This document shows, one piece after another, positions 3,791 through 31,242 of a stretch of 33,100 nt of DNA; positions within the stretch are counted from its first letter, which is position 1; each line of letters begins with the position of its first letter. Below the pieces are notes generated by a model. It worked only from the letters and a program-made list of their open reading frames with translations. It was not told the origin of the DNA and did not search any database. Position numbers and translations under genes: made by a program. The DNA comes from Rickettsiaceae bacterium 4572_127 (lineage in GTDB: Bacteria; Pseudomonadota; Alphaproteobacteria; Rs-D84; NBLK01): NCBI GenBank assembly GCA_002084505.1, contig NBLK01000008.1:1-33100 (forward strand), in the 5' to 3' direction.

Positions 3791-3792
3791 TT

Positions 3793-4614
3793 CTATACTC
3801 CGAATAAATCTGATTTTTGTTTGTTTTTTAATCCATTAAATCGCTTTATAGAAAGATCTAAGTATTCTTTTTCTTTATCAATTCCAATAAATTTTCGCCC
3901 ATACATTATTGAAGCAATTCCAGTAGTTGAACTTCCAGTAAAAGGATCTACAATTAAATCACCTTCATTTGTAGATGCTAAAACAATTCGTCTTAATAAA
4001 TCTAAGGGTTTTTGAGTTGGATGTTTTCCAAATAATTTTTCCGATGGACGAGGTGTGTTTATAGACCAAACAGATCTCATTTGTAAATTAGGTTTTTTCA
4101 TTTTATCTTCTACCCAACTTCCATTTTTCATTTCATCATAGTTGAAAACATGTTTTGCTTTTTTTTCTTTTCTAGCCCAAATAATCGTCTCATGCGAGGC
4201 TGTGAAAAACCTACAACTTAAATTAGGGGAAGCGTTCGGCTTAAACCAAGCGATGTCATTTAGAAATTTAAATTTATTTATTTCCAGTGCAAAACCACAT
4301 TGATAAATAGAATGATAGGTTCCACTAACCCAAATTGTTCCTTCTGGTTTTAAGACTCTTCTGCACTCTTTCATCCATGATACATGAAAATTTAAATTTT
4401 CTTCCATCGTCCCACTTAGATCCCAATCGCCTTTTTTTACAGAAACCATTTTTCCATTTTGACAAGAAAAACTTCCACTAGATAAAAAATATGGCGGATC
4501 AGCAAAAATCATATCTACTGAATTTTCAGGAAGTTGTTTCAATAACTCCAAACAATCTTTTTGGTATAATGTAAAATTCTCATTAGAAAAATATGGTTGC
4601 TCTTTAATTTGCAT
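3793..4614 (-). CDS. Beta-class N6-adenine (N6_N4) DNA methyltransferase, DpnA/M.MboIC-like
   Basis: Motif IV (DMIFADPPYFLSSG) lies N-terminal, then VSVKKGDWD, PNLSCRFFTASHETIIWA and GKHPTQKP, with motif I (DPFTGSSTTG) C-terminal, which is the beta permutation. These strings closely recall the DpnII-system DpnA GATC methylase (from memory). The ATG overlaps the accD stop by 11 nt. Confidence 0.85.
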   Translation of the reverse strand: MQIKEQPYFSNENFTLYQKDCLELLKQLPENSVDMIFADPPYFLSSGSFSCQNGKMVSVKKGDWDLSGTMEENLNFHVSWMKECRRVLKPEGTIWVSGTYHSIYQCGFALEINKFKFLNDIAWFKPNASPNLSCRFFTASHETIIWARKEKKAKHVFNYDEMKNGSWVEDKMKKPNLQMRSVWSINTPRPSEKLFGKHPTQKPLDLLRRIVLASTNEGDLIVDPFTGSSTTGIASIMYGRKFIGIDKEKEYLDLSIKRFNGLKNKQKSDLFGV

Positions 4615-5708: not shown

Positions 5709-5887
5709 TATTTATCCTCTTTTTTATAGCAAAGTTCTTACTTACTTATGGTGATTGATTTTTGCACTGTCTGCCAATAAAATCATTTACCCCGCAAATC
5801 GATAAATCAACCACTCCTGTTGGTGAGATTCTCTTTTTTCATAGGAATAAAGAATCTGGTAAAATTAAATACTAACTTTTACATTTT

Positions 5888-6568
5888 TTATTTATTTTCT
5901 TGTGTTGGTTTTACTTCAGATTCTTTATCAGTTTCTTCTGTTTTCTCACCATCAGCATCAGCATCACCCTCAGCTTCCTCACCCTCCTCTGTTGGTTTTA
6001 CTTCTTCTTCTATTTTTCTAGGAGCAACAATTGTAACTAGTGAGAAGTTTGTTCCTTCATCAGCTAACTCAGTTCCTTCTGGCAACTTAAGATCTTCAAC
6101 ATGAATCCCATCTCCAAATTCCAAACCTGCTAATGATATTTCTATTGAAGAAGGTATAAATTCTGGCTTACAAGAAAGAATTAATTTTCTTCTAAGGATA
6201 TTAAGAATCCCACCTTCCTTTAATCCTTTTGATTTCAATCTGTCCGTAAATTCTAGAGCAACTTTAACTTTAACTGGTTTTTTGCCAACTCTTAAAAAGT
6301 CTGCATGAATTGGAGCCCCTGAAACTGAATCAAAATCAACTTTTTTACATAGAACTTTTTGCTCTTCTTTATCTAATGTAAGATTAAACAACCTAGCATA
6401 AAATCCATTTTCATGCATTTCTTTTACTAAGGTTTTCTTTTCTAGCTTTATAGATGTTGGACTTTCTTTCTCGCCATAAATTATAGCCGGCAAAAATCCT
6501 TCTTTACGAATAAGACGAGATGCCCCCTTGCCCTCTTTTCCTCGTAAAGATACTTTTAAATTTTTCAT
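5888..6568 (-). CDS. rplY: 50S ribosomal protein L25 / general stress protein Ctc, with acidic C-terminal tail
   Basis: MKNLKVSLRGKEGKGASRLIRKEGFLPAIIYG is the canonical L25 N-terminus. Start therefore placed at the internal Met (ATG 6568), not the tracked 6628. Confidence 0.85.
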   Translation of the reverse strand: MKNLKVSLRGKEGKGASRLIRKEGFLPAIIYGEKESPTSIKLEKKTLVKEMHENGFYARLFNLTLDKEEQKVLCKKVDFDSVSGAPIHADFLRVGKKPVKVKVALEFTDRLKSKGLKEGGILNILRRKLILSCKPEFIPSSIEISLAGLEFGDGIHVEDLKLPEGTELADEGTNFSLVTIVAPRKIEEEVKPTEEGEEAEGDADADGEKTEETDKESEVKPTQENK

Positions 6569-8818: not shown

Positions 8819-10378
8819 TTAATACGCAGGGGTTCCCCATTGGTTTGATAATCTTTCTTCTGGATCTAATGGAGATTGAAGGACTTGCGGAGTGAGCATA
8901 ACAACCAAAACATCTCTTGCAGATTTTGTGTCTTTTCCACCACCTAGTCCCATAAAATTAGGGTCTCCAATACCGTACCTTGTATCGCTATTTTTTGTTT
9001 TTTCAAATCCTGTCATAATTAAAGTCTGCCCAGATTTTAAAACCAATTCTTGTCTAAAACTTCTTTCGTCAATTCGTGGCATTCTAACTTTAATAGCATC
9101 GTCTCCACCACCAAAACTCTGCTCGTCCCAACTTAGTAGCTCCCTTAAAGACATATTAAACATAACTAGAATTCTTCCGTTTTCTAGAATATTAGGAAGT
9201 AACTGCATGCTAAATCCAACCGTCTCTTCAACAGGCTTAAAGTCAGTTGTATTGAGATTTTCTCCCTGTGCCGAAGTTGAAAAACTATCAACATATTTAA
9301 ATTTTTGAGTGCTATTAACGGGGGCGATTCTATTGTTTCTAGTTGTAACAGTGGCAGTGCTAACAACTGAAACTTTTCCTTGTTTTGCCAATGCATTAAA
9401 TGCTGAACTGCTTCCTTTGGCTTCTGCTAAACTTCCAGTTGCACTACTATCAACAGCTACACTTAAAGTTTGAACCCCTTCATTTGTAGCAAAAGGATTT
9501 ATAGTTTCAGATATTAGCTGTAACCCTGACGCATCTTGAAAAAAAGCATTCCAATTTATACCAACAGAATTTTCGTCTTCTAGCGAAACTTGTAAAACTT
9601 TTACCGTTATAGCTACTAATTTTGAAAGTCTTCGATTTTGTTCTCTAACATAAGCTCCAACTCGATTCAAAGTAGAAGGACCGGCAGTCACGGTAATTGT
9701 CCCTGTCGAACGAGAAACACTAACTTCTCCATTCTGCACAATTCCTTTTAATGCATTTTCAATTTCTTCCCATTCTTTTAAGTTCACGCTTGTTTGAATC
9801 GAAAGATTCTCCCCCTCTTCATTTCCAATAACAGAATTATAAACCGTATCTGTTGGTAGAGAATACACCGTAAATGTTTTTGTTTCTTTTTGATAGAAAG
9901 TTATTTTTTTCTTTTCGTGAAACCAGTAGAGACCTAAGTCTGTTGAAATAGTATTTAGTAATTCGCTCAAAGGACCTGTATGCGATAGTTTAATTTTTTC
10001 TATATTATTTTGATCTATTAAATCATCTATAACAACTTTAATCCCAGTTAAAGAATAAATCTCACCTGCTATTGAAATAAGCGAATTCGGTTCATCAGCA
10101 ACAAAAGTTATTCCCTGCGGAGTCTCCAATTTTAGTGGCAAAGGCTCTTTATGTTCATTCTTTACAGAATCGCTTCCTAGCCAAATTCCTGAACTAACGG
10201 AGACAGTGTCGTTCGTTGTTTTTTTTAATGGATTTTTAGCTTTTTCATTTGCTCGCACCGCCTCTCTATAATCTTGGCGAACTTGATTATTAACAGATTG
10301 AGAGACCTGCTCATTACAACCAACTGTAATAATTGCTAATACTAAAAAAGTTAAAAAACTTTTAATCTGCATTTTCAT
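8819..10378 (-). CDS. Secretin lipoprotein, type IVb pilus PilN (R64) / TcpC-like
   Basis: Lipobox LAIITVGC. C-terminal secretin core VSVVSTATVTTRNNRIAPV...LVLKSGQTLIMTGF...RDVLVVMLTPQVL. Immediately downstream of a TcpQ-domain gene. Confidence 0.75.
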   Translation of the reverse strand: MKMQIKSFLTFLVLAIITVGCNEQVSQSVNNQVRQDYREAVRANEKAKNPLKKTTNDTVSVSSGIWLGSDSVKNEHKEPLPLKLETPQGITFVADEPNSLISIAGEIYSLTGIKVVIDDLIDQNNIEKIKLSHTGPLSELLNTISTDLGLYWFHEKKKITFYQKETKTFTVYSLPTDTVYNSVIGNEEGENLSIQTSVNLKEWEEIENALKGIVQNGEVSVSRSTGTITVTAGPSTLNRVGAYVREQNRRLSKLVAITVKVLQVSLEDENSVGINWNAFFQDASGLQLISETINPFATNEGVQTLSVAVDSSATGSLAEAKGSSSAFNALAKQGKVSVVSTATVTTRNNRIAPVNSTQKFKYVDSFSTSAQGENLNTTDFKPVEETVGFSMQLLPNILENGRILVMFNMSLRELLSWDEQSFGGGDDAIKVRMPRIDERSFRQELVLKSGQTLIMTGFEKTKNSDTRYGIGDPNFMGLGGGKDTKSARDVLVVMLTPQVLQSPLDPEERLSNQWGTPAY

Positions 10379-11051
10379 CTTCCAATGTTTTTAACACAAG
10401 AACTCTATTTCCATAATAAAATTTAGCATAGGGTGGTGGAGTTGCTCGACCAAAAGTCCTAATTAAAGCTGAAGAAACATCTGTGAATCTTCCATTGAAT
10501 TTTGCCCCCGCTTTTAGCGGATAAGATCGGTATGTGTTCCAAACTATTTCCCAACCTTCGTTCATAGCCCACTTTTTCAAAACTGATTTTAGTGTGTCAC
10601 CTTCTTTTGCAATCCATTCCCTGGAAACATCTGGAATGTGTTCTTCGCTAGATGCTTCAAGTGTTAAGGTTCCTGCTTTGGAATTTCGAGAAAATAAACT
10701 TCCTACTCCATAAGCATAAGAATTAGGGGCTGTAGGTGGAATAGATGCGGAAATTGTCTGCCCTCCGTCGTCCTCCATTAAATCTTTGTGCGACAGGTCC
10801 ATTTTAGAATTTTCAGGTGCCTCTTTTCCTTCTAACGCAACTGGAATGCTGCCGGGAGGGGAATATGATGCTCCACCACTCCAACCTCTTTCTGCCATGG
10901 GTTGCCTAGGTTCTCTTCCTTTTTCTACAGGCATTTGATATGATGCAACAGAATTAGAGCTAGGCCAAGCAGGTTCATGGCGAGGCTCGTTTACACCATC
11001 CGCTAGCAGTTGAAAGCTAAATAAAAATAAAGAAATAAAAAATAATTTCAT
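10362..11051 (-). CDS. TcpQ/PilL-like pilus biogenesis protein
   Basis: Start placed at MKLFFISLFLFSFQLLADG (signal peptide; ATG 11051, preceded by AGAGGAG). C-terminal WIAKEGDTLKSVLKKWAMNEGWEIVW...FNGRFTDVSSALIRTF matches the TcpQ domain pattern. The upstream part of the tracked ORF (to 11234) runs through a repeat. Noticeably more GC-rich than its surroundings. Confidence 0.65.
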   Translation of the reverse strand: MKLFFISLFLFSFQLLADGVNEPRHEPAWPSSNSVASYQMPVEKGREPRQPMAERGWSGGASYSPPGSIPVALEGKEAPENSKMDLSHKDLMEDDGGQTISASIPPTAPNSYAYGVGSLFSRNSKAGTLTLEASSEEHIPDVSREWIAKEGDTLKSVLKKWAMNEGWEIVWNTYRSYPLKAGAKFNGRFTDVSSALIRTFGRATPPPYAKFYYGNRVLVLKTLEDENAD

Positions 11052-11249
11052 GTTTCTCTCCTCTTTAATTTTATAGTAAAGCAAAAACAAGTGAAAGCAA
11101 GAACTTTTTTGACAGTTATTTGAAGAGAATTTTAGAGAACATAGAGCTGAGTTTATTTTGCAATTGAATAGAGCTATTGCATAACTCTTGGTGATTGCTT
11201 TCTTGCTGTGTCTGCCAATAAAATCATACATCAAAATGTATAATTTTAA

Positions 11250-11400
11250 GGTTCAATTCCGTTTTATGTGTGTTTTCTTAAATACCCCTCACCTTGTTCC
11301 TCTCCCGCAAGGGGAGAGGAGACGAAATTTTCAACATTTTTTTATCAACAAATTATGCTCGGGTGAGGGGTATAAAACACATGCAAAATGGAATTGAGCC
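11250..11400. repeat. Nested palindromic element (R3)
   Basis: Outer arms GGTTCAATTCCGTTTTATGTGTGTTTT / AAAACACATGCAAAATGGAATTGAGCC. Inner arms ACCCCTCACC / GGTGAGGGGT. Central hairpin CCTCTCCCGCAAGGGGAGAGG. A partial copy lies at 29674-29723. Confidence 0.8.
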
Positions 11401-11650
11401 AATTTTAAATACGATACCAACAAAAACCGTTCGTAAGAACTCACTCTAATCACTCCGCTTTGCGAAATCTCTTTTTTTCTATTGCATAACATTAGGTTAT
11501 GCAACAGGTCTAATGATGAGTTTTTTCCTTAGGCTATAAACCTAGTTTTATAGCCGTTGTTTAGTTTTCGGGACTTAGCGGTGACTTTCCTCACTATAGT
11601 AAAACTAATTTATGTTGTCTTGTCTTTTTCTTTTTTTTCTGGTTAATGTT

Positions 11651-11804
11651 TTTTAAAATTTATCCGCATACTCGCTATCTTTTTCGGCTCTTTTCAACAG
11701 CTTAAGTGCAAATGAGTCATCCCAATTCCACTAAAATCGATTGAAAATTTCTCGAGAAATTTAGGCGATTATGCGGACAGTTTTAATTGGTTTGACCATA
11801 AATT
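11651..11804 (+). mobile_element. MITE-like ~150-bp element, copy 1 (R4)
   Basis: Colinear with 24171-24324. Subterminal inverted repeats ATCCGCATACTCGC ... GCGATTATGCGGAC. No coding capacity. Confidence 0.7.
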
Positions 11805-11882
11805 CACCGTGACAAAAAGCAATCACCAAGATTAAAAAACAATTTTATTGTCTAAAAAGTTTTTTTATGTTATGTTTATTGA

Positions 11883-12971
11883 ATGAGAAATTATTCTAGA
11901 AAATTTGGATTAGTCGAAAAATGGTTTGCGAGAAGAATCGTAAAACATTCCGCAAAGAAAAGACTAAAATTATATAGAAAGTTATCGGCCCTTTTGAGAA
12001 ATAATTTTACTCTAATGGACGCCTTAGATCGCCTTTGGATGATTGCTTCAAAAGACGGAAGAAGTACTGGTGAACCATTTGCAATTGCTATTTCTATTTG
12101 GCAAGGAAGACTAGAAAATGGAGAAAGCTTTTCTCATGCGTTGCGAGGCTGGGTGCCTTTTCGAGAAAGATTGATGTTATCCGTTGGAGATGTTTCTAGG
12201 CTAGAAACGGCATTAGTTCATGTCATAAAAGTTGCAGAAGGTTCGGACAGGATTATCGCACCTTTAATTTCCGCTTTTGCATATCCGTTATTTTTATTGG
12301 TTCTAACATTTTTAATTTTAATTATGGTTGCTGTTTATTTAGTTCCGCCTTTAATTGATGCTGCAGGAAAAGATATCATTTGGTCAGGGGTTGCCAGCTC
12401 ATTAGTTTCCATTTCAGATGGAATCGCCACATATTGGTGGGCATTTCCATTAAGTTTTATTGTTTTTGTATTTCTTATCACTGTCTCCTTGCCCTATTTA
12501 ACTGGAAAATTACGAGTTGTATTAGATAAATTTCCACCTTGGTCTTTATACAGATTATTTACAGGAGTGAGTTGGATTTTATCTTTATCTGCCTTGACTA
12601 AGTCGGGGACTCCAATAACAAAAGGAATGGCATCGCTTAGAGATGATTCTACTCCATATTTAAGAGAGAGAATTGACTATGCTTTGGACTATATGAGCGA
12701 AGGAGAAAACTTAGGAACGGCCCTAAAGCATACTGGTTTTAATTTTCCAGATAAAGAAATTATTGGTGATTTAGAAATCTATGCAGAGCTAGATAATTTT
12801 GAAGAAACTTTGGAGCAAATTGGTAATGAATATCTAGAAGATGCTATCGTTCGAATTCAAACTACTGCTGGAATTTTAAATTCTTTTGCAATTCTTTTGA
12901 TTGCAGTTGTTATAGCTTGGGTTGTTTTTGGAACCTTTGAAATGCAAGAACAGCTAACTGCTCAAATGTAG
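11883..12971 (+). CDS. GspF/PilC-family platform protein (PilR/TcpE-like)
   Basis: Two T2SS-F-type repeats (LSALLRNNFTLMDALDRL...GESFSHAL...GDVSRLETAL and LSALTKSGTPITKGMASL...GENLGTAL...) and three hydrophobic segments. Confidence 0.75.
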   Translation: MRNYSRKFGLVEKWFARRIVKHSAKKRLKLYRKLSALLRNNFTLMDALDRLWMIASKDGRSTGEPFAIAISIWQGRLENGESFSHALRGWVPFRERLMLSVGDVSRLETALVHVIKVAEGSDRIIAPLISAFAYPLFLLVLTFLILIMVAVYLVPPLIDAAGKDIIWSGVASSLVSISDGIATYWWAFPLSFIVFVFLITVSLPYLTGKLRVVLDKFPPWSLYRLFTGVSWILSLSALTKSGTPITKGMASLRDDSTPYLRERIDYALDYMSEGENLGTALKHTGFNFPDKEIIGDLEIYAELDNFEETLEQIGNEYLEDAIVRIQTTAGILNSFAILLIAVVIAWVVFGTFEMQEQLTAQM

Positions 12972-17125: not shown

Positions 17126-17443
17126 ATGGTTAATATGGCAAACTTGGTAAAACAAGCGAAAGAAATGCAAGAAAAAGTTGCTAAGGCACAAGAGCAATTA
17201 GCAAACGAAACTGTTGTCGGAACTGCTGGCGGTGGCTTAGTTGAAGTTATAATGAACGGACGAAAATTCGTTGAAGACATTAAAATTAAAACAGAAGCAA
17301 TGGCTAATAAAGAAGAACTGACAGACTTATTAGTTGCAGCATGTCGTGATGCAGCGGAAAAAGCAGATGCTCTTACAGAAAAAAGATTAGAAGACTCTAC
17401 TGGCGGATTTAACCTTCCAAAAGGTGTTTCGTTCCCAGTATAA
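17126..17443 (+). CDS. ybaB: YbaB/EbfC nucleoid-associated protein
   Basis: 105 aa. NLVKQAKEMQEKVAKAQEQLANETVVGTAGGGLVEVIMNG is the YbaB signature. Confidence 0.9.
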   Translation: MVNMANLVKQAKEMQEKVAKAQEQLANETVVGTAGGGLVEVIMNGRKFVEDIKIKTEAMANKEELTDLLVAACRDAAEKADALTEKRLEDSTGGFNLPKGVSFPV

Positions 17444-17444
17444 T

Positions 17445-18407
17445 ATGAAAAGCACTAGAAACAAAACATTAATCTGCAGTGAAGAAGAAATTTCAAGATT
17501 AGGGGAATTATTAATAACTCCCTCTAATTTTGTAAATAAAGCTATTTTAGACAAAATTATAAATGGTGATTTTTTTGAATCTATCAAGTTGATAAAAGAT
17601 AATTCTATAAATCTTTTAGTCATGGATCCACCTTATAATCTAACAAAAGATTATAATGGTGAAAAATTTAAAAAAACCTCTGATGATGAATATAGTTTGT
17701 GGTTTCAAAAAGTTATAAAAGAGTTAAAGCCTAAGTTGACTAAAAATGCCACTGTTTATGTTTGCTCCGATTGGAAAACTTCCTGTTTAATTGAACCTAT
17801 TTTATCTAAAAATTTCTTAATACAAAATAGAATTACTTGGGAAAGAGAAAAAGGTCGTGGATGTCAAAATAACTGGAAAAACAACACCGAGGACATTTGG
17901 TTTTGCACAAATACTAATGATTATTATTTTAATGTAAATGCGGTGAAATTAAAAAAACAAGTTATCGCTCCATATAAAGATAAAGATGGAAAAGCCAAAG
18001 ATTGGACTGAAACTAATGGGCAGGCTTTTAGACTAACTTATCCTTCTAATATACTAACAGATATAACTATTCCTTTTTGGTCTATGCCTGAGAATACAAA
18101 ACACCCAACACAAAAACCTGAAAAATTAATTGCTAAATTGGTTTTAGCTAGCTCAAAAGAAGATGATATTATTTTAGATCCATTTTTAGGTAGTGGAACA
18201 ACGGCAGTCGTCTGTAAAAAACTAAATAGAAAATTTATTGGAATAGAAGTAAACAAGGAATATGCTTGTCTTGGTCTTAAAAGATTAGAAATTGCTGAAA
18301 CTGACAATGCAATTCAAGGGTATGAAGGCGGTGTTTTTTGGGAAAGAAACAGTAAAAATAATACAAAAAAACGAGTAAAAAAAACACAACAAGGGAAGCT
18401 CTTATGA
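17445..18407 (+). CDS. Beta-class N6A/N4C DNA methyltransferase (R-M system 2)
   Basis: LLVMDPPYN (motif IV), then HPTQKPEKL, then DPFLGSGTT (motif I). ATG 17445 lies 1 nt after the ybaB stop. The tracked start at 17424 would overlap ybaB. Confidence 0.85.
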   Translation: MKSTRNKTLICSEEEISRLGELLITPSNFVNKAILDKIINGDFFESIKLIKDNSINLLVMDPPYNLTKDYNGEKFKKTSDDEYSLWFQKVIKELKPKLTKNATVYVCSDWKTSCLIEPILSKNFLIQNRITWEREKGRGCQNNWKNNTEDIWFCTNTNDYYFNVNAVKLKKQVIAPYKDKDGKAKDWTETNGQAFRLTYPSNILTDITIPFWSMPENTKHPTQKPEKLIAKLVLASSKEDDIILDPFLGSGTTAVVCKKLNRKFIGIEVNKEYACLGLKRLEIAETDNAIQGYEGGVFWERNSKNNTKKRVKKTQQGKLL

Positions 18408-19069
18408 AAAAAAGTATTTTTTATGAAAACAATTATAGAAAATTAGAAAGCAAAATAAAAGATTTTCTAAACAATTACGATTTTGTTCTAAATGAAGCTA
18501 TGGCTGACACACGAGCCGTTGGTGGGTTAATTGAGAAAGTGTTAAAAGACAATTTTGAGCTTATCTTAAAAGACTTTTGCAAAAGATATGACACATCTTT
18601 TTCAAGAAGAGCGATGGCTGATTTTGCTTTCTTAGATAAGAATGACTTTTTTGTTATAGTTGATTCAAAAACACATAGAGAAGACACTAAATTTAATATG
18701 CCCAATTTAACATCCGTTGATAGGTTGTCGCGATTTTATGAAGAAGACACAAATGTTTTTTCGATTTTAATGGTAAAATATACAATAAAAAACAACAAAT
18801 TGAAGATAAAAAAAATTCATTTTATTCCTATTGAATTTTTAGATTGGGGTTGCTTAACAATCGGCGCCTTAGGATTCGGTCAAATCCAAATAAAAAATTC
18901 TAATAAGATAAAAATAAATTATAGCTATTCTAGAAAAGTTTGGATGCTTGAATTCTTTGAGGTTCTTCTTAATTTTTATCCAAAAGAAATTATTAAAATA
19001 AATAGTAGAATTCAACTTTTTGAAGAACGAAAAGAAACTTGGAAAAACAAAAAAGATATTTGGAAATAA
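18404..19069 (+). CDS. Putative type II restriction endonuclease partner (PD-(D/E)xK-like), no recognisable family
   Basis: ATGA overlap with the methyltransferase stop. Candidate catalytic arrangement ADFAF...FVIVDSK (D...D-x-K). Confidence 0.45.
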   Translation: MKKSIFYENNYRKLESKIKDFLNNYDFVLNEAMADTRAVGGLIEKVLKDNFELILKDFCKRYDTSFSRRAMADFAFLDKNDFFVIVDSKTHREDTKFNMPNLTSVDRLSRFYEEDTNVFSILMVKYTIKNNKLKIKKIHFIPIEFLDWGCLTIGALGFGQIQIKNSNKIKINYSYSRKVWMLEFFEVLLNFYPKEIIKINSRIQLFEERKETWKNKKDIWK

Positions 19070-20227: not shown

Positions 20228-20238
20228 AGTATATCACA
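20228..20238 (-). promoter_or_regulatory. Extended -10 box TGTGATATACT upstream of the RusA-like gene
   Basis: Reverse complement of AGTATATCACA. Identical 11-mers lie at 31232-31242 (+) and 29361-29371 (-). Confidence 0.4.
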
Positions 20239-24170: not shown

Positions 24171-24324
24171 TTAAAAAAATTATCCGCACACTCGCCATCT
24201 TTTTCGGTGCTTTTCAACAATTTAAGTGAAAATGGGTCATGCCCAATTCCACTGAAACCGATTGAAAATCTCTCTAAAAATCTTGGCGATTCTGCGGACA
24301 ACCTTAATTAGCTTGACTATAATT
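24171..24324 (+). mobile_element. MITE-like element, copy 2 (R4)
   Basis: Colinear with 11651-11804. Inverted repeats ATCCGCACACTCGCC ... GGCGATTCTGCGGAC. Overlaps the non-coding 5' part of tracked ORF 24262..25197. Confidence 0.7.
24295..24323 (+). promoter_or_regulatory. Outward-facing sigma70-like promoter at the right end of the MITE-like element
   Basis: CGGACA (-35, 4/6), a 17-nt spacer and TATAAT (-10, 6/6), about 50 nt upstream of the dinD TTG start. The equivalent CGGACA-17-CATAAA lies at 11774-11802, upstream of the pilR-like gene. Confidence 0.4.
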
Positions 24325-24372
24325 ACGAATCAAGACATAATAAATTGTGTTAGATACAAAAAGGAGGTTGCT

Positions 24373-25197
24373 TTGACTGAAGTTAGCGATAAGAGGTATG
24401 AGTCTTTTGAAGAAATAAAGAGAATCGACAAAGACGGAAATGAGTTTTGGTTAGCGAGGGAATTGCAAAAGGTTATGGGGTATTCAGCCTTTCATAATTT
24501 TGAAACAGCAATTTCGAAGGCTAAAATAACTTGCCACGAAAATAAGGATAAGGTTGAAAAACACTTTGTGGAAAAGGTTTTTAACGACAGCGTTAAAAAC
24601 CCTAAAATAGGGGGAAGACCAAAAAAAGATTACAAATTATCTAGGTATGCTTGCTATCTTACTGCCCTTAATGGAAATCCAAAGATTTTACAAGTAGCAA
24701 AGGCTCAAAAGTATTTTGCTGTTCAAACTAGAAAAATGGAACTTACAGAAGAATATAAGTTAGAAGTGGAGCGACTAAATGCTCGTGCAAAACTTTCACA
24801 AACAGAAAAGGAGCTTTCGTCTGAGATTTACAACAAAACAAATCGTGATAAATTCGCTTTTGGCTACATTAGAAGCAAAGGCGATCAAGTTTTATTTGGT
24901 GGAAATTCAACAGCTGATATGAAGAAAAAACTTGGTGTTTCCAAAGGAAGACCTATTGCTGATTTCTTACCAACAGTTACAATTAAAGCTAAGGATTTAG
25001 CAGGAGAAATGACGAATCACAAATTAAAAACAACAGAACTAAAAGGTAAATTTCAAATCTCGAATGAACATCAATCCAACAATAAAAAAATCAGAAAAGC
25101 CCTCACAGATAGCGGGATTGTTCCTGAGGAATTGCCTTGCTCTGAGGATATAAAAAAAGTTGCAAATAGGAATAAAAACAAGTCCATTAAAAAGTAA
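24373..25197 (+). CDS. dinD: DNA-damage-inducible protein D (DinD) family
   Basis: FEEIKRIDKDGNEFWLARELQKVMGY..F.NF...ISKAK..C, DYKLSRYACYL and AQKYFAVQTR match the DinD pattern. Start set at TTG 24373, 5 nt after AAGGAGG, giving 274 aa. Confidence 0.75.
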   Translation: MTEVSDKRYESFEEIKRIDKDGNEFWLARELQKVMGYSAFHNFETAISKAKITCHENKDKVEKHFVEKVFNDSVKNPKIGGRPKKDYKLSRYACYLTALNGNPKILQVAKAQKYFAVQTRKMELTEEYKLEVERLNARAKLSQTEKELSSEIYNKTNRDKFAFGYIRSKGDQVLFGGNSTADMKKKLGVSKGRPIADFLPTVTIKAKDLAGEMTNHKLKTTELKGKFQISNEHQSNNKKIRKALTDSGIVPEELPCSEDIKKVANRNKNKSIKK

Positions 25198-25753
25198 TTT
25201 TTATGATTTTGCCCTCTTGCCCCACTAGGCTTTTGTTTACTGTGTATTTGAAATTATGTTTTTCTTGTGCTGTTTTTATTTCCTCGTCGGTATTTTTTCC
25301 TTTTAGCAAAATCAAAGTCATGTTTTTGGATGGCTTTAACCATTTTAGGATTCTTTCCAATGGAGCAAATGCTCGTGCTGTGATTATAGAATATTCAGGA
25401 AAAGCAATCTCCTCAACTCTTTTTACTAAAACTTTTGCATCTAAATTAAGTTTGCGAATTGCCTCTTTTAGAAAAATTGCCTTTCTCTGATCGCTTTCTA
25501 TTAAAGCTATTTTATAGCCCAAAATACTCAATGGTATTGCAGGAAAACCACCTCCTGATCCCAAATCAAAAAACATTTCTTTTTTTGAAAAATAATTTTG
25601 CAACTGAATACTGTCTAAAATATGACGATTCCAAAAATCAGAAATCGTTGAATTGCTAATGAGGTTTATTTTTTTTTGCCATTTCAAAACGAGTGCTTGA
25701 AATTCTAATAACTTTGTTTTAGACTCAGGAGAAATATATAAAGGATTTTGCAT
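25187..25753 (-). CDS. rsmG: 16S rRNA (guanine527-N7)-methyltransferase RsmG/GidB
   Basis: Start at MQNPLY. KWQKKINLIS....FWNRHILDS and the SAM motif FFDLGSGGGFP. The tracked extension to 25909 is rejected. Confidence 0.85.
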   Translation of the reverse strand: MQNPLYISPESKTKLLEFQALVLKWQKKINLISNSTISDFWNRHILDSIQLQNYFSKKEMFFDLGSGGGFPAIPLSILGYKIALIESDQRKAIFLKEAIRKLNLDAKVLVKRVEEIAFPEYSIITARAFAPLERILKWLKPSKNMTLILLKGKNTDEEIKTAQEKHNFKYTVNKSLVGQEGKIIKITF

Positions 25754-26612
25754 GAAAAAACTATACAATTTATTTTTTAAGAGAGCAAGAAAAAAAACTA
25801 AAGTCTGGTATGTTTTTTTAGTTTTACCAGTCCTAATTGCTGTTTTCTTTTTTCCACAAGCTGAAAAAAGTTTCTCAAAAAAAGCATTAGTTGATGGTGG
25901 AAATTTCACTGGATACGTAATTGCTGAACGGCATGCACAATTTTCACAAGACTATAAAACAGCATCTTTTTATGCAGAAAAAATTATGCAAAATTCTAAA
26001 AAAACAGACGAGAAATCTCTGAAAAAACTTTTCTCTTATTTTATTCTAAGTGGTGATTTTGACAAAACCCGATTGTTTTTATCTGAAAATCCAGCTGAAT
26101 TTAAGAAGAATAGATTAGGGCAATTTTTAATTTTAACTGATGCTGTGAAAAAAAATGATTACAAAACTGCTAATAAAATTGTTAAAAATATTGAAAAAGG
26201 TAACAGCGACAAACTCGCCTTGCCACTCATAAAAACTTGGATTTTAGCAGGACAAAATAAAAAAGAAGAAGCTAAGAAAAGTTTGAAATTTATAGATACA
26301 GCAGACACTCGTATTTTATATTTAATGCATTCTTTTTATCTAAATAATTATTTTGGAGAAGATAAAAAAGCTCTGAAAATCTTAGAAAAATTTGATGAAG
26401 CTCAAAAATTAAATGTGAGATTTATAGATTACGCATCTCTATTTTTAGAAAAAAACAAAGACAAAAAAACAGCAATAAATTTTATAAAGAAACGTTTAGA
26501 AACTGAAAAATCTTACGCTAACAAGCTATACTTAAAAAGATTTATTTCGGAGAAAAGTAATCATAAAAAATTTAATTCTCATGACGGACTGACTGAGGCG
26601 TTTATTGATTAA
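25752..26612 (+). CDS. Membrane-anchored TPR-like protein, N-terminal part of a probably split gene
   Basis: N-terminal basic region plus a TM segment (VWYVFLVLPVLIAVFFF), then helical-repeat-like sequence. The stop is followed by an overlapping open frame that leads into the next TPR ORF. Confidence 0.55.
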   Translation: MKKLYNLFFKRARKKTKVWYVFLVLPVLIAVFFFPQAEKSFSKKALVDGGNFTGYVIAERHAQFSQDYKTASFYAEKIMQNSKKTDEKSLKKLFSYFILSGDFDKTRLFLSENPAEFKKNRLGQFLILTDAVKKNDYKTANKIVKNIEKGNSDKLALPLIKTWILAGQNKKEEAKKSLKFIDTADTRILYLMHSFYLNNYFGEDKKALKILEKFDEAQKLNVRFIDYASLFLEKNKDKKTAINFIKKRLETEKSYANKLYLKRFISEKSNHKKFNSHDGLTEAFID

Positions 26613-26680
26613 AAGACTTTGGAAATGCCTTAAATATATTTAGTTCGATTGATAAGAATAGTTTTTTTTATCCCTCTTCA

Positions 26681-27349
26681 TTGTTGAAACAAGCACGAAT
26701 TTATAAAAAAAATAATAACGATAAATTGGCTATAGAAACATATCGGGAGCTAGTTGAAAAGCATCCTAGTTATTTGCTCGCTGTTTTGTTGCTCGGTGAA
26801 ACTTATGTGCAGAATCGGGATTATTCTAATGCTAGAAAGCTCTATGAAAAATTGCTGGAAAATACGAAAGATCATTCTGCTTTAAGTTGGGAAGTTTTTT
26901 ACTATTTGGGATTAATTTATGATTGGGAAGATAAAAAAGAATTAGCCGAAAAAAATCTAAAAATCGCTCATGAAAAAAGTCCGAAGAATCCAATCGTTCT
27001 AAATTATTTAGGTTATTTTTGGATTGAAAACAATAAAAATATAGAATCAGCAATGGATATGATTAAAACCGCACTAACTTCCGCTCCTCAAAATGTTGAA
27101 TTTTGGGATAGTTATGGTTGGGCTTTGTATAAAATTGGAAAGTTAGAACAAGCGAGAGAAGTTTTAGAAATTGCCATCACGAGAAAAGCGTCTAATCCTG
27201 AAATTCGTGACCACTTAGGAGATGTTTATAAAGCACTTGGTGAAAACAAAAAAGCGATATACAACTGGAAAAAAGCGATTTATTATCAAGACATCGGACT
27301 TGGTGTAAAAGATATTGAAAAAATAAAAAATAAGATTTTTGATAAATAA
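26681..27349 (+). CDS. TPR repeat protein, C-terminal part of a probably split gene
   Basis: Several TPR-like repeats (LLLGETYVQNRDYSNARKLYEKLLE; YYLGLIYDW; LNYLGYFW; WDSYGWALYKIGKLEQA; HLGDVYKALGENKKAIYNWKKA). The only start is a TTG, and the frame is open from 26609. Confidence 0.6.
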   Translation: MLKQARIYKKNNNDKLAIETYRELVEKHPSYLLAVLLLGETYVQNRDYSNARKLYEKLLENTKDHSALSWEVFYYLGLIYDWEDKKELAEKNLKIAHEKSPKNPIVLNYLGYFWIENNKNIESAMDMIKTALTSAPQNVEFWDSYGWALYKIGKLEQAREVLEIAITRKASNPEIRDHLGDVYKALGENKKAIYNWKKAIYYQDIGLGVKDIEKIKNKIFDK

Positions 27350-29353
27350 TCATTGTATCGTAAACAGGTTATCTCCGTTTAATATAAAAGATTTTCCTTC
27401 GTATTCTATTCTAGTATAGCCTGAACAACAGTTATTACTAAACCAGCAAGCTTTTGTATCTCCTCGACTAGGATCTCCAAATACAGAGCTATGGCAATAA
27501 ACTAAATCTCCTTTTTTAAAGTTTTTTGTAACTCTGCCGTTTGCTCCAGCAAAAGTTATTCCAATAAGAGCATCAACAGCTGAGGTAATCTTATTGTTAA
27601 AAGAAGTTACTAAGTTTGTTTTTTCGGCTGTTTCACAACTTTTTCCAAATGTTTCAGTAGAGCATTGAGATGGTGTTCCTGCACACTCACTCCACTTTCC
27701 TTCACATCGCATGTTAACACAACTTTTGAAATTTGTTTTATCTGCTTCACATTGCGTTATTTTAGCTTCTCTCTGTCTCTTTTCTTCCTCAGTATCGTTC
27801 TGTTTTTTATTCTCAGCATCTTCTTCTTTTTTTCTGTTTGAGATTTCTTTTAATGTTTTTTTTCCAAATTTTATTGCTTCTTTTTTGAATTGGCTCCAAA
27901 TTTTATTTTTATCATTTAGACATGGATCTAATTTAACTAAGCAGTAGTTTTTCTTATATTCAATGTCGTTGGAAGTGGCGCAATCAACAAACCCATTTCC
28001 ACAATGCGGTTGCATGCAATCTTTTAAGTCGGTGGCACATTGAGAAACCAAAGATTTAGAATGTTTTTTACTTTCTCTTTTTCCAGAACCTACAATTTCT
28101 TTCCAAATAACATCGTTTTTATTTACATTTTTACATTTGTCTAAAATATCACTCACTATAATTCTTTTAGATTCTAAAAGAGCTTTCGTTTGGCAATTCT
28201 CAAAATTCTCCCCACATCCAGCGGTAGTAATCAAAACATTTTTAACTTGCTTAGAACATTCTTCTGCTGAAAATTGATTAGCTTCTTTATGCTCCGCTTT
28301 TTGCAATTTATTATATGCAGATTGAAAAACAAACTCCATTTTTCTTAACTTTCCTGTTAAACTGTTTTGAAATGCTAAACAAGATTTTTGAGTTGATGCT
28401 TGGTATGAAGCGACAATATGTTTTTTGAATGAAGCAGATAACTTTAAGTAAGGATCACATGCCCCTAAGGAATCTTTGAATAGAGCCAGTCCTTCTTTTC
28501 TTTTGTTTTCTTCTCCCAGCAATTGGTCTAATCCGTAATTTACATTATCTAAATCCCAAGGATTTTCGGTGTCATTTTCGTCTTCTGTTAGACCTAGTTT
28601 CTCCAAAGTAGCTTCATTAAAAATTTGATATTGAATTCCCATTTTCGCAGCCTCAACATTAGAAGTTAATTGCAATAGCTGTTTCATTTTTTCGTGAACT
28701 TTTTTTTCTAGCGGTTTTAATTTAGCTATATTTGCAGAACAAAGACACCTATATGCAGGATTTATAGAATCAGTATCATTACAAAAATCATCCATACAAA
28801 CTCCCCATCGCTTTTTAGTCTCTTCCATTCCTAGCAATTGCTCTTCTTTATCTACTTCTTGGTATTCTTGCTGAACATTATTTCGTCCTGTGATATTTGT
28901 CATGGATGGTGCCATAGATGGAATCACTCCACTTCTAGAAACACCTGCTCTTGCTGAACTGCTTTTTGTTGGAGCGGTTTGTCTTCTTGATGCAGTTGCT
29001 GTCCCACCACTAGAACGAGAAGATCTAGCTCGTCCAGACCGTGCAGATCTTCGCCCCGATCTTGCATTTGTTGTTGTTTGTGAAGAAGAAGCCGAAGTTG
29101 TAGTTCCTCGCCCAGACCTTGCTGATGTTTTAGTTTCGTTTGTAGAATCATCTTGTCCTCGAGTTGAGCGAGTATTTGTTGATCTTGTGCTTCCAGAGCG
29201 AGCTGATCTTTTTCTAGAACTTGTTGTTCTTTCACGAGATGTTGTTTGTTGCTCTGCTCTATTGCTTCCTGATCTTGCACTAGAAGTTCTTCTAGCATTT
29301 GAAACACTAGAAAACACATAGAATACACAGAAAATAATAAATATTTTTTTCAT
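27350..29353 (-). CDS. Secreted protein with an N-terminal Ser/Thr/Arg-rich ARSG-repeat region and a large Cys-rich region; no recognisable family
   Basis: Signal peptide MKKIFIIFCVFYVFSSVSNA. Five ARSG motifs plus an ARAG variant within about 130 low-complexity residues. About 26 cysteines in the remaining ~480 residues. Long uninterrupted ORF in a stop-rich AT genome. Confidence 0.6.
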   Translation of the reverse strand: MKKIFIIFCVFYVFSSVSNARRTSSARSGSNRAEQQTTSRERTTSSRKRSARSGSTRSTNTRSTRGQDDSTNETKTSARSGRGTTTSASSSQTTTNARSGRRSARSGRARSSRSSGGTATASRRQTAPTKSSSARAGVSRSGVIPSMAPSMTNITGRNNVQQEYQEVDKEEQLLGMEETKKRWGVCMDDFCNDTDSINPAYRCLCSANIAKLKPLEKKVHEKMKQLLQLTSNVEAAKMGIQYQIFNEATLEKLGLTEDENDTENPWDLDNVNYGLDQLLGEENKRKEGLALFKDSLGACDPYLKLSASFKKHIVASYQASTQKSCLAFQNSLTGKLRKMEFVFQSAYNKLQKAEHKEANQFSAEECSKQVKNVLITTAGCGENFENCQTKALLESKRIIVSDILDKCKNVNKNDVIWKEIVGSGKRESKKHSKSLVSQCATDLKDCMQPHCGNGFVDCATSNDIEYKKNYCLVKLDPCLNDKNKIWSQFKKEAIKFGKKTLKEISNRKKEEDAENKKQNDTEEEKRQREAKITQCEADKTNFKSCVNMRCEGKWSECAGTPSQCSTETFGKSCETAEKTNLVTSFNNKITSAVDALIGITFAGANGRVTKNFKKGDLVYCHSSVFGDPSRGDTKACWFSNNCCSGYTRIEYEGKSFILNGDNLFTIQ

Positions 29354-29360
29354 ATCAATT

Positions 29361-29371
29361 AGTATATCACA
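29361..29371 (-). promoter_or_regulatory. Extended -10 box TGTGATATACT 7 nt upstream of the ATG of the Cys-rich protein gene
   Basis: The minus strand reads ATTTTGTGATATACT-AATTGAT-ATG, with no Shine-Dalgarno. A divergent TGTGATATAAT lies on the plus strand at 29421-29431. Confidence 0.45.
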
Positions 29372-29478: not shown

Positions 29479-30141
29479 TTTACCCCGCCCCAAAATAGTA
29501 AGAGCTATTTTGACCCTCCCACAAGGGGTGGGTGATACGGTGGAAAATACGGAAAAGAAAGAAAGAAAGAAAACAAGAAAAGATTCGATTCGGTGAGTTT
29601 CCTGCCTTCGCAGGAATGACAGCTTTGTTGATTCGATTCGGTAGGATTCAATCTTTTCCAATGACTCGGACTCCGCCTCTCCCCTTGCGGGAGAGGTCGA
29701 GCGAAGCTCGGGTGAGGGGTATATAGTAAAACTAAATACTAATTTAATGTTTTTTTACTTATTATGTTATGTTAGTTTTTAATTTTATAATAAACAACTT
29801 TTAAGTTATTTTTGTTGCTTTTCAACAATTTAAGTGAAAATGGGTCATACCCAGTTCCACTGAAACCGATTGAAAATCATTCAAAAATCTTCTTAAAATT
29901 TGTTTAATTACTATTTAGTTTTACTATAAAAAAGATCGTCATTCCTGCGAAGGCAGGAATCTCACAATACAGAATCTTTTTTGCTCTCTATAAAAACTGA
30001 AAATTATGGAGAAAAACTGCACTTGATCCTAGTAAAAAAACATTGGGAAGCAAAAAATTACGAATCCCAAAACTCGGTCTATCACCCACCCCTTGTGGAA
30101 GGGTCAAAATATCTTTAGATATTTTGGGGCGGGGTAAAAAA
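29479..30141. repeat. Mirror-symmetric mosaic of repeat modules (R2-R1-R3-R6-R4-R6'-R1'-R2')
   Basis: R2 at 29479-29536 (-) and 30081-30141 (+). R1 at 29580-29620 (+) and 29938-29978 (-). The exact 17-mer TATAGTAAAACTAAATA at 29722-29738 has its reverse complement at 29912-29928. An R4 fragment (29815-29892) sits at the centre. An AAG-rich microsatellite lies at 29551-29582. Confidence 0.85.
29815..29892 (+). mobile_element. Internal fragment of the MITE-like element (R4), lacking both inverted-repeat ends
   Basis: TTGCTTTTCAACAATTTAAGTGAAAATGGGTCATACCCAGTTCCACTGAAACCGATTGAAAATC aligns with 24208-24270. Confidence 0.7.
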
Positions 30142-30209: not shown

Positions 30210-31112
30210 ATGAAAAAAATATGTTTAATTTTAGCTAGTATTTTAGCAACAAGCTCTGTTTCTGCTGATTTTTTAGTACATCCACAAAAAATTGTTTTCT
30301 CTGGAAAAGATAAAACTAAGTCTATACAAATCACAAACATGGGCAGTGAAGCGAAAAGCTATAAAATGAAATTTGTAGAGCTTTATCCTATGAAAAGCGG
30401 AGCTTATAGAAATATCGAGAAAAGAAACGGAAACCTTGTTTTTGTTGATAAAGGCCTAAATAAAAAGAAAAAGCCAATAGAAAAAATTAGTCCTTTAACC
30501 ACAACTCAGGCTAGCAAAGTAAAATTCGCATCTCCGTTTATTGACTATTCTCCCAGACGAATTACATTAAACCCAAATGAAACTCAAATTATTCGACTAA
30601 TGCTTAATAAAAAGGCTAGAAAAAATAAAGACATTGAAGCGAGATCGCATTTTTATATTCAAGAAAAAAATGTAATCCAAAAAGCTCAACCAAAGTCTAG
30701 ATCTAAAAAAATGAGTTTTAACATACAAGGGCTTCCGGGTGTAACTATTCCTGTTGTCGCTCGATTTGGTAAAACTAGTGTTGAAGGTAGGTTTAAGAAT
30801 ATCAATGTTTCAAATTCTAATAGTGGTGCTCAGTTGAGTCTAACTCTTGAAAGAAAAGGAGATCAATCTCTTCGTGGAAATATAGTTGTTTACAAAGACG
30901 AAGGTTTTTTCTATTCGGATACAGAAATTGGTAGAGTTGCAAATTTCGCTGTTTATTCGAATCTAACAGAAAGATATATTAAAATCCCACTTCATGATAA
31001 ATCTAAAAATCTGAAGCTTGGTGATGTAAAAGGTGAAGATCTTATTATAAAGTTTGAAGGTGATGCTGATGACTGCCCAGATATTAACTTCGAAACAAAA
31101 TTAAAAATGTAG
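30210..31112 (+). CDS. Periplasmic PapD-like (chaperone-usher type) chaperone-fold protein, orphan
   Basis: Signal peptide MKKICLILASILATSSVSA. VHPQKIVFSGKDKTKSIQITNMGSEAKSY and SPRRITLNPNETQIIRLML....KDIEARSHFYIQE resemble the PapD N-domain pattern (PP.f.l.P...Q.lRi....lP.DrES.f.l.v). No usher or pilin gene nearby. Confidence 0.5.
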   Translation: MKKICLILASILATSSVSADFLVHPQKIVFSGKDKTKSIQITNMGSEAKSYKMKFVELYPMKSGAYRNIEKRNGNLVFVDKGLNKKKKPIEKISPLTTTQASKVKFASPFIDYSPRRITLNPNETQIIRLMLNKKARKNKDIEARSHFYIQEKNVIQKAQPKSRSKKMSFNIQGLPGVTIPVVARFGKTSVEGRFKNINVSNSNSGAQLSLTLERKGDQSLRGNIVVYKDEGFFYSDTEIGRVANFAVYSNLTERYIKIPLHDKSKNLKLGDVKGEDLIIKFEGDADDCPDINFETKLKM

Positions 31113-31231: not shown

Positions 31232-31242
31232 TGTGATATACT
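31232..31242 (+). promoter_or_regulatory. Extended -10 box TGTGATATACT 6 nt upstream of the ccrM ATG
   Basis: TTTTTTGTGATATACT-TTTTTT-ATG, with no Shine-Dalgarno. Confidence 0.45.

Follow-up and report, generated by a model that had tools for sequence, protein, structure and literature searches.

The Helicobacter proteins HcpA-E are secreted, Sel1-like proteins built of repeated alpha-helical hairpins, each of which is stapled by a disulfide. The chlamydial protein OmcB, with its signal peptide, its basic N-terminal segment and its Cys-rich body of ~500 amino acids (aa), has been proposed to stiffen the envelope via disulfides and to bind anionic glycans. In the mitochondrial intermembrane space, the twin-Cx9C or CHCH proteins form antiparallel helical hairpins with nested disulfides. 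These three groups are the nearest analogies to the product of a 667-codon gene from Rickettsiaceae bacterium 4572_127 (contig NBLK01000008.1, positions 1 to 33,100; this whole stretch of 33,100 nucleotides (nt) is called the window below), and the protein turned out to belong to none of them. It is a conserved, selected and exportable protein of three parts, a member of a large unannotated family, and no structural relative could be detected for it. Judging from its sequence, the general kind to which it would belong is that of modular, disulfide-stabilised exported proteins. More than a lone hypothetical open reading frame (ORF), the gene gives access to a sizeable family, as yet uncharacterised, in a bacterial order about which little is known.

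The likeness to HcpA-E lies in the disulfide-stapled helical hairpins, which for the window protein are suggested by the paired loss of cysteines and by a helical model. Sel1/SLR and TPR profiles matched neither this protein (Pfam, E<=1) nor 44 long members of its family, and no SLR structure was returned by Foldseek. Other differences are that each hairpin probably has three disulfides, nested, where HcpA-E have one, that the rod-like body is much longer, and that a cationic arm and a beta tip are present. With OmcB it shares the predicted signal peptide, the basic N-terminal segment and the approximate length of the Cys-rich body. However, OmcB is beta-rich and carries DUF11 repeats, whereas the window protein is all-alpha, gives no DUF11 match and has no relation to OmcB in sequence or fold; its arm carries an ARSG motif and 0 classical XBBXBX sites. 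An antiparallel hairpin with nested disulfides, as in the CHCH proteins, is plausible here as well, but the spacings (Cx6C/Cx4C/Cx12C), the three rungs, the concatenation of the modules and the setting, a bacterial periplasm or surface, are different, and homology was not detected. Spectrin-repeat and trypanosome receptor-type bundles resemble the protein in their elongated multi-helix geometry only; the Foldseek matches were not significant (best E 0.53, template-modelling (TM) score 0.17-0.23, root-mean-square deviation >17 A).

Gene, Start Codon and Predicted Signal Peptide

The gene, called the largest accessory ORF in a preliminary description of this DNA, is real, begins with ATG and is the largest ORF of the window (Table 1). 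Two further ORFs overlapping it had been called antisense there; this holds for 28890-29321 (+) only, and 28924-29328 (-) is a shifted frame on the same strand. The public protein collection's own call of the gene (P0001) has 517 aa and starts at M151 (codon 28901-28903), so that the signal peptide and the arm of the protein are hidden. Comparison with relatives indicates that this call is truncated by 150 codons and favours M1. It is likely a start-codon mis-call due to the atypical composition of the arm, and restoring the 150 codons to the annotation reveals the signal peptide. All the close homologues (P0002-P0005, P0008 and P0012; 33-81% identity over the body) have a signal peptide and an Arg/Ser-rich arm. 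Compared with the closest orthologue (L087), the ratio of nonsynonymous to synonymous substitution rates (dN/dS) is 0.28 for the arm, 0.078 for the helical core and 0.44 for the C-terminal third, and the indels in the arm are in-frame, codon-multiple ones only. On this comparison, the arm reads as coding sequence under purifying selection.

The N-terminus, MKKIFIIFCVFYVFSSVSNA/RR, with the slash at the predicted cleavage site, is laid out in n, h and c regions like a Sec signal peptide, and positions -3 and -1 are occupied by small residues. By hydropathy it is the sole hydrophobic segment of the protein, and it has no lipobox. The S-N-A cleavage motif and the n, h and c regions, read by eye, are conserved in the orthologues. 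This layout, together with the conservation of signal peptide and arm in the close homologues, agrees with the clear signal peptide reported earlier and predicts that the protein is exported.

The Cationic Arm and Its Repeated Motif

Behind the signal peptide, the arm (residues 21-155) consists mostly of S (25%), R (19%), T (18%), A (10%) and G (8%), as expected from the low-complexity S/T/R/G/A arm that had been described. Its net charge is +23 and its pI 12.0, and its GC content is 44% vs 33% in the body. AlphaFold2 assigned it a predicted local distance difference test score (pLDDT) of 24-32 without secondary structure, in a model built with 7 sequences that was poor as a whole (pLDDT 52.8).

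Five copies of ARSG and a single ARAG, the same count as before, are found in the arm, at residues 26, 51, 78, 97, 104 and 134. In composition-preserving shuffles 0.07 copies were found and 0 of 5000 shuffles reached the six observed, which corresponds to an 80-fold enrichment. The earlier impression that this repeat is visible in the DNA was mostly not upheld: the DNA-level signal is weak, with GATCTTGC occurring twice and GACCTTGC once (three octamer matches), and Tandem Repeats Finder reported nothing in the arm. Codons differ among the six motif copies, for example GCA AGA TCA GGA, GCT CGC TCT GGA and GCA CGG TCT GGA, which indicates that the repeat is maintained in the peptide sequence. 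The number of copies does vary between relatives, from 4 to 8. Read mapping revealed related strains, with arm indels in one contig, and no clean repeat-number series between strains was seen in it.

A related motif is present throughout the family. In the linkers that precede the body in 110 distant members of the Rs-D84 type (see below), [AS]R[ASV][GA] was counted 248 times, 7-fold more often than in shuffles (34+-6), and 93 of the 110 have it. Its typical form there is V-S/A-A-R-A-A/G, in 2-5 copies, and it is rare in the much longer bodies of the family. In the window protein, this family-wide short linear motif takes a local, cationic form, SARSG. The enrichment both in this protein and in the 110 relatives argues that the motif is conserved and functional, as opposed to noise of low complexity. 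Short linear motifs of such a kind usually mark a binding or processing site. The possibility that ARA/G and ARS/G are repeated signal-peptidase sites was considered and rejected, as the sites are far from any hydrophobic segment.

The Cysteine-Rich Body

Residues 156-667 contain 26 cysteines, the number given in the preliminary description. Of the spacings listed there, C-x5-C and CC are present and C-x3-C is absent; C-x4-C, C-x-C and C-x6-C also occur. The conserved helical core carries the signature C186-M-D-D-F-C191 ... C203-x-C205-S and 16 family-conserved cysteines. Across 150 family members, 36 alignment columns are Cys-rich, most of them with >95% Cys, and the cysteines that are missing go in pairs: 373/400, 439/478, 451/458, 557/564 and 179/306. 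Columns 373 and 400, for instance, are Cys in 97% of the 150 members; the 5 sequences that lack the one Cys also lack the other (Jaccard 1.0), and they fall in two separate lineages, the window protein's own subclade and P0119. This pairwise loss points to disulfides, and metal binding by the cysteines, in the form of metal clusters, was rejected for this reason.

Within the family, the module C-x6-C-x4/6-C-G-x4-C-x12-C-x6-C...IW..F recurs. Its disulfides may be nested as 1-6, 2-5 and 3-4, which would give a helical hairpin stapled by three rungs. In the window protein the predicted pairs would be 366-407, 380-387, 439-478, 446-471, 451-458 and 557-564. The window protein has one complete copy, another one (366-407) having lost the 2-5 rung; P0005 has three copies and P0008 four. 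Since the number of modules ranges from 1 to 4 between relatives, the length of the rod varies as well. The Lys/Glu-rich segment mentioned earlier was located at residues ~481-535, within a single predicted helix of ~90 residues, and it stands in the place of a Cys-bearing module of the Rs-D84 paralogues, alignment columns i1-i4 being gapped in the window protein.

With 90 family sequences, AlphaFold2 modelled the body as an all-helical rod with a mean pLDDT of 78.5, 255 residues at >=90 and a core that is mostly >90. Foldseek found no match to this model at E<=0.001 in the PDB or in BFVD, the best being the spectrin repeats mentioned above in the former and a match with E 0.14 in the latter. 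Searches of the PDB sequences with the family profile and with a profile of the C-terminal tip gave nothing. The protein likewise has no family match in Pfam, NCBIfam or PHROGs, for the first two even at E<=1. The earlier verdict of no recognisable family is right for such curated libraries; beyond them, a large unnamed family exists.

The C-Terminal Tip

The protein ends in a small tip (...GDNLFTIQ), for which the beta-rich character proposed earlier is supported by a low-confidence model. Its motif is G-x-x-V-x-C-x3-S-x-FG-x-(D/N)P-x5-K-x-C. Two proteins of related assemblies, P0003 (L088) and P0004 (L085/L086), do not differ at all over residues 151-400 (100% identity), keep 92-98% identity up to ~500 and are unalignable thereafter, their C-terminal thirds being unlike. 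Similarly, the window protein is 82-94% identical to P0002 as far as ~residue 550 and 10-30% identical thereafter. Its last 70 residues are 71% identical to the tip of P0003, the bodies of these two being ~60-70% identical. The two types of cassette nevertheless align, sharing G-x-x-V-x-C...FG-x-(D/N)P...K-x-C, and are distant homologues of one ~70-aa Cys-containing beta domain. This domain evolves fast and is exchanged between lineages, including near-identical relatives. A mosaic C-terminus of this kind is typical of exposed interaction domains.

An RGD tripeptide, also noted before, is indeed present at residue 630, and it is not conserved in the closest tip homologue. A relation to SUEL/Gal_Lectin, suggested by a likeness of FG-x-DP...K-x-C to the end of that domain, was dropped, as no profile supported it.

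A Large Unnamed Family in Rs-D84

A word-indexed search returned four close relatives, together with two distant ones having the same Cys framework. Outside the close group, independent evidence of membership comes from phmmer matches to P0006 (1.4e-6) and P0007 (5.4e-5). In an exhaustive search, a profile of the body alone matched 769 representative clusters with E<=1e-3, of which 573 reached E<=1e-10 and 193 E<=1e-30; the members are mostly of 700-1000 aa. The word-indexed search with a 90-sequence profile found only 9 proteins, none of them named. The sampled members have no Pfam domain (44 long members scanned) and no name beyond 'hypothetical protein'. The gene had been called accessory; it is no orphan and represents a branch of a family that comprises at least 769 clusters.

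A scan of species genomes, one per species, found 202 stretches that encode members of the family. Nearly all lie in metagenome-assembled genomes (MAGs) that bear the label Alphaproteobacteria, Candidatus Enterousia or 'Rickettsiales bacterium' and were recovered from rumen, faeces and termite gut; a few come from the Zodletone sulfidic spring. These MAGs belong to the GTDB order Rs-D84, whose members reportedly have genomes of <1 Mb and no respiration, are probably partner-dependent, and encode many membrane-bound hypothetical proteins, possible mediators of cell-cell interaction (PMC12306168). No paper linking Rs-D84 with cysteine-rich proteins was found in the literature.

Most Rs-D84 loci hold a syntenic trio of family genes, with paralogues A (~730 aa) and B (~830 aa) in tandem and C (~900 aa) divergent, embedded among housekeeping genes such as clpP, clpX and infA. 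The trio takes ~7.5 kb in the Rs-D84 loci examined, in genomes of ~0.7-1 Mb, and it has no annotation, Pfam model or structural relative. Paralogue A often ends in a glycine-zipper-like stretch, with a weak Gly-zipper_Omp match (E 0.0014), followed by a CEDI-x-M/F tail. Two or three exact-match transcript fragments of a distant Rs-D84 paralogue A gene were met in three metatranscriptome libraries, which is weak evidence that the family is expressed and bears on that gene, none of it on the gene of the window. Beside paralogue C, at 5723-6454 (-) in L041 and at equivalent places in other Rs-D84 loci, there is a gene for a secreted, Cys-rich protein of ~243 aa without a Pfam match, which may be a fourth component of the trio locus.

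In a distance tree, paralogues A, B and C of Rs-D84 are cleanly apart, and the window protein and six relatives form a separate fourth branch. This branch is rare, with seven clusters in a collection of 15 billion proteins, which come from sediment, vent and spring metagenomes; no relatives of it were found in the JGI metagenome contigs (two scans) or in viral contigs. The absence from viral contigs indicates that the family is not phage-borne. Like the Rs-D84 proteins, the window protein has the predicted signal peptide, the [AS]R[ASV][GA] linker, CMDxFC...CxCS, the Cys framework and the all-alpha body, and the profile matches are highly significant. Unlike paralogues A, B and C, it has a far more Arg/Ser-rich arm with 6 motif copies, a K/E helix in place of one Cys module and an environmental instead of a gut habitat. 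It is also not part of an infA/clpPX-linked trio, being the single family gene in the 33-kb window, as its close orthologues are in their loci. The glycine zipper and the CEDI-x-M/F tail are not found in its clade, which has its own beta tip instead.

A Conserved Promoter Element

The extended -10 element in front of the gene (Table 1) is conserved: TG(A/G)TATACT, followed by 7 nt and the ATG, is kept in four of five orthologue loci (L087, L085/L086 and L001), with body identity down to ~40%. P0003 has a GGAG ribosome-binding site in place of this arrangement. The exact 11-mer TGTGATATACT is over-represented, with three copies in the window (0.02 expected), at 20228-20238 (-), 29361-29371 (-) and 31232-31242 (+), each time ahead of an ORF, and it looks like the organism's strong extended -10 promoter. 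Most other genes of the window have ribosome-binding sites of the AAGGAG type. A generic -35/-10 scan found nothing at the gene and was uninformative, with 9 sites vs 10.3 expected. The transcript is predicted to be leaderless, as had been proposed, from the conserved position of the element 7 nt before the ATG, the over-representation of the motif and the missing Shine-Dalgarno sequence. A gene for a CcrM-like methylase at 31249 also starts 7 nt after TGTGATATACT and may be leaderless too.

Table 1. Features of the gene and its product, with positions in the window.
Feature	Position	Strand	Basis
Complete coding sequence, 667 codons and stop	27350..29353	-	ATG start; longest ORF of the window
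Extended -10 element TGTGATATACT	29361..29371	-	Ends 7 nt before the ATG, no Shine-Dalgarno between
Predicted Sec-type signal peptide, residues 1-20 (MKK / IFIIFCVFYVF / SSVSNA), predicted cleavage after SNA	29294..29353	-	Direct reading and hydropathy
Disordered polycationic arm, residues 21-155, S/R/T/A/G rich	28889..29293	-	Composition and AlphaFold2
Six (S/T/N)-A-R-(S/A)-G copies	29267-29278, 29192-29203, 29111-29122, 29054-29065, 29033-29044, 28943-28954 (span 28943..29278)	-	
Conserved helical Cys core, residues ~169-480	27914..28849	-	Invariant columns in family alignments A1-A4; hidden Markov model (hmmsearch) 7e-219 from the A2 profile, in whose build the protein was included; dN/dS 0.078
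Degenerate 6-Cys alpha-hairpin module (C366, C380, C387, C407)	28094..28258	-	V373 and V400 stand where the module has its second and fifth Cys
Complete 6-Cys alpha-hairpin module C439-x6-C446-x4-C451-x6-C458-x12-C471-x6-C478...IW..F	27887..28039	-	Module pattern
K/E-rich segment, residues 481-535	27749..27913	-	AlphaFold2 helix, residues 461-550 (~90 residues; 310-399 of the trimmed model)
Second Cys cluster C535, C545, C550, C557, C564, C573	27635..27751	-	Cys columns; 557/564 lost together
C-terminal tip domain, residues 597-667, small, beta-rich	27353..27565	-	Low-confidence predicted strands

Possible Function of the Protein

The explanation to which we tentatively incline is that the protein is a Sec-exported, extracytoplasmic fibre of the envelope or cell surface, with a structural or adhesive role. 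It would probably be translated from a leaderless mRNA, made from the strong extended -10 promoter, and then be exported via Sec. After cleavage of the signal peptide, the mature protein would have ~72 kDa and three parts. The cationic arm of ~135 residues, with its six ARSG/ARAG copies, could tether the protein to an anionic polymer by multivalent, electrostatic binding; this polymer might be lipopolysaccharide or peptidoglycan of the same cell, or belong to the surface of another one. The all-alpha rod of ~440 residues, with nested disulfides (13 possible pairs), would serve as a rigid spacer. The Cys-containing beta domain of ~70 residues, which diverges fast and is swapped between strains, would form an exposed interaction tip. 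The surface or adhesin-like role that had been suggested earlier would fit this exchanged C-terminal domain.

Several points weigh against a surface fibre. No route across the outer membrane was identified, and a periplasmic location would be equally compatible with the sequence. The argument for disulfide bonding is the covariation of Cys loss, there are no Dsb genes in the window, and many family members come from anoxic habitats, in which extracellular disulfides are less secure. The tip is modelled with low confidence (pLDDT 32-52), and the isolated tip domains have no significant match in Pfam (best RRP40_S1 E 0.022 and GHD E 0.038, which is chance level) and none in the PDB. The close orthologues of the fourth branch have no conserved neighbours, and their surroundings give no functional clue. 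The sequence of the gene was in no RNA run of a sequencing-run search.

The main rival is a periplasmic spacer or tether that connects the outer membrane to the peptidoglycan or the inner membrane and binds peptidoglycan through its ARSG/ARAA motifs. It would be analogous in function to Braun's lipoprotein or the OmpA-type tethers, and we consider it possible, if rather doubtful. The glycine-zipper-like stretch and the CEDI-x-M/F tail of paralogue A would fit a membrane-anchored end, many linkers of the family are Ala/Pro-rich, like hinges that span the periplasm, and a conserved trio among housekeeping genes, in genomes of <1 Mb, suggests a core envelope role; it is for the Rs-D84 proteins that the zipper ends and the setting of the trio favour this reading. 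The lack of an evident outer-membrane export route for the window protein speaks for it as well. However, the clade of the window protein has neither the zipper nor the tail, no known peptidoglycan-binding domain was found with Pfam or NCBIfam, and C-termini exchanged between near-identical strains are met more typically at exposed surfaces, where selection is diversifying, than in periplasmic scaffolds.

A soluble secreted effector or adhesin that acts at a eukaryotic host is unlikely. In such a protein, the arm would bind glycosaminoglycans in a manner analogous to the N-terminus of chlamydial OmcB, and the signal peptide, the cationic arm, the Cys-rich body and one XBBBXXBX match in the arm (SRKRSARS) are in keeping with it. 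XBBXBX is absent from the arm, however, and a single XBBBXXBX is unremarkable for such a composition; furthermore, the all-alpha body is unlike OmcB, and the RGD is not conserved. The low-GC, repeat-rich genome hints at a reduced, possibly symbiotic lifestyle, and in one relative the orthologue lies beside a platform gene of the type II secretion system (T2SS) or type IVb pilus, with a secretin gene and a TcpQ-like gene also present in the window. On the other hand, the preliminary description's host-associated bacterium was not borne out. The source is marine sediment; 99% of the sampled words of the gene are found in a marine-sediment metagenome, with diverged strains in hydrothermal-vent metagenomes and relatives in vents and the sulfidic spring, and no eukaryotic host is indicated. 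The linker motif is also common to gut-lumen Rs-D84, which are thought to depend on other microbes.

It is quite improbable that the protein is a polymorphic toxin or bacteriocin-like protein whose N-terminal part delivers a variable, toxic C-terminal cassette. The near-identical N-terminal two-thirds of P0003 and P0004, their unalignable C-termini and the sharing of cassettes follow the pattern of CdiA, Rhs and MafB-type proteins, but the cassettes are distant homologues of one beta domain and not unrelated toxin folds. In addition, Pfam and the PDB gave no toxin domain for the tip, no delivery-system domain was found, and there is no immunity-like gene downstream, where a convergent TPR gene lies in the window and UvrB or PD-(D/E)XK in relatives. 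Already disfavoured, and scarcely credible, is a 517-aa cytoplasmic product as in the public collection, its first 150 codons untranslated, for which the automatic choice of M151 and the atypical arm composition (44% GC) speak, but which is opposed by the in-frame signal peptide and arm of all six close homologues, with codon-multiple indels and a dN/dS of 0.28, by the conserved promoter element 7 nt ahead of M1, by the family-wide linker motif and by 26 conserved cysteines, which are unexpected in the cytoplasm.

With considerable doubt, the family could be an unrecognised, lineage-defining class of envelope proteins, namely disulfide-laddered helical rods of a new fold that dock through a conserved, multivalent ARxG/ARAA motif. 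If this is true, the rods might be assembled, in reduced-genome Alphaproteobacteria such as Rs-D84 and its environmental relatives, into a lattice at the surface or in the periplasm, or into attachment fibres for their partner-dependent lifestyle; the window protein would then be an environmental variety, its anchor hyper-cationic and its recognition tip exchangeable. With genomes of <1 Mb, bacteria of the Rs-D84/Enterousia type are widespread in animal guts and are believed to live at the expense of other cells, and the window protein extends the family to relatives from marine sediment, vents and a spring. The linker motif, the predicted disulfide-ladder hairpin, the swappable tip and the predicted leaderless promoter are features that can be tested.

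Neighbouring Genes

The window is chromosomal, with 32% GC, and contains glyA, accA/accD, dnaX, dnaN, sufB, rsmG and a CcrM-type methylase gene. The nearest SufB proteins are 78-90% identical and come from MAGs of uncultured 'Alphaproteobacteria bacterium', followed by proteins of ~60% identity across many phyla. A lipoprotein-type secretin gene, a TcpQ-like gene and a T2SSF platform gene at 8819-12971 represent type IVb pilus or T2SS-like machinery, and a T2SSF orthologue, 83% identical, lies divergently beside P0004 in another genome (L086, 2-946). Systems of the T2SS and type IVb-pilus type export folded, disulfide-bonded proteins, and these genes are a weak lead on an export route.

Opposite the gene, at 30210-31112 (+), a secreted protein of 300 aa is encoded that matches PapD_N with 19.6 bits vs a cut-off of 23, with further weak Fn3/MSP-like matches. 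A functional link between the two genes was not supported, the PapD_N match being below threshold and no homologue being present beside any orthologue examined. A chaperone-usher pilin is likewise not indicated, as there is no usher in the window, the protein is helical and not Ig-like, and the adjacency to the PapD-like gene is not conserved.

In the intergenic region upstream of the gene, at 29479-30138, and also at ~955-990, there are nested inverted repeats made from short GC-rich palindromes such as GTCATTCCTGCGAAGGCAGGAA. Their arms measure 59 nt at 90% complementarity, 43 nt at 86% and 26 nt at 92%. In the source metagenomes, pieces of these repeats are found at 1000-9000x contig depth vs ~15x for the gene, which indicates very high-copy elements resembling miniature inverted-repeat transposable elements (MITEs) or Rickettsia palindromic elements (RPEs).

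Between the accA-like and accD-like genes, a MutH/Sau3AI-like endonuclease and an N6/N4 DNA methylase at 3173-4614 (-) form a probable restriction-modification insertion. At 17424-19069 (+), the gene of a second DNA methylase (327 aa) precedes that of a 221-aa protein without a match in Pfam or PHROGs; the two may be another restriction-modification pair. The Bro-N protein encoded at 24262-25197 (+) matches phrog_8036 (E 2.7e-66) and, weakly, the anti-repressor Ant, and its gene is a phage-derived one among housekeeping genes. At 25752-27349 (+) lie two adjacent TPR ORFs of 286 aa and 222 aa (TTG start), in different frames and 68 nt apart, the first of which overlaps an over-long rsmG ORF (25187-25909); the two may be one TPR gene split by a frameshift.

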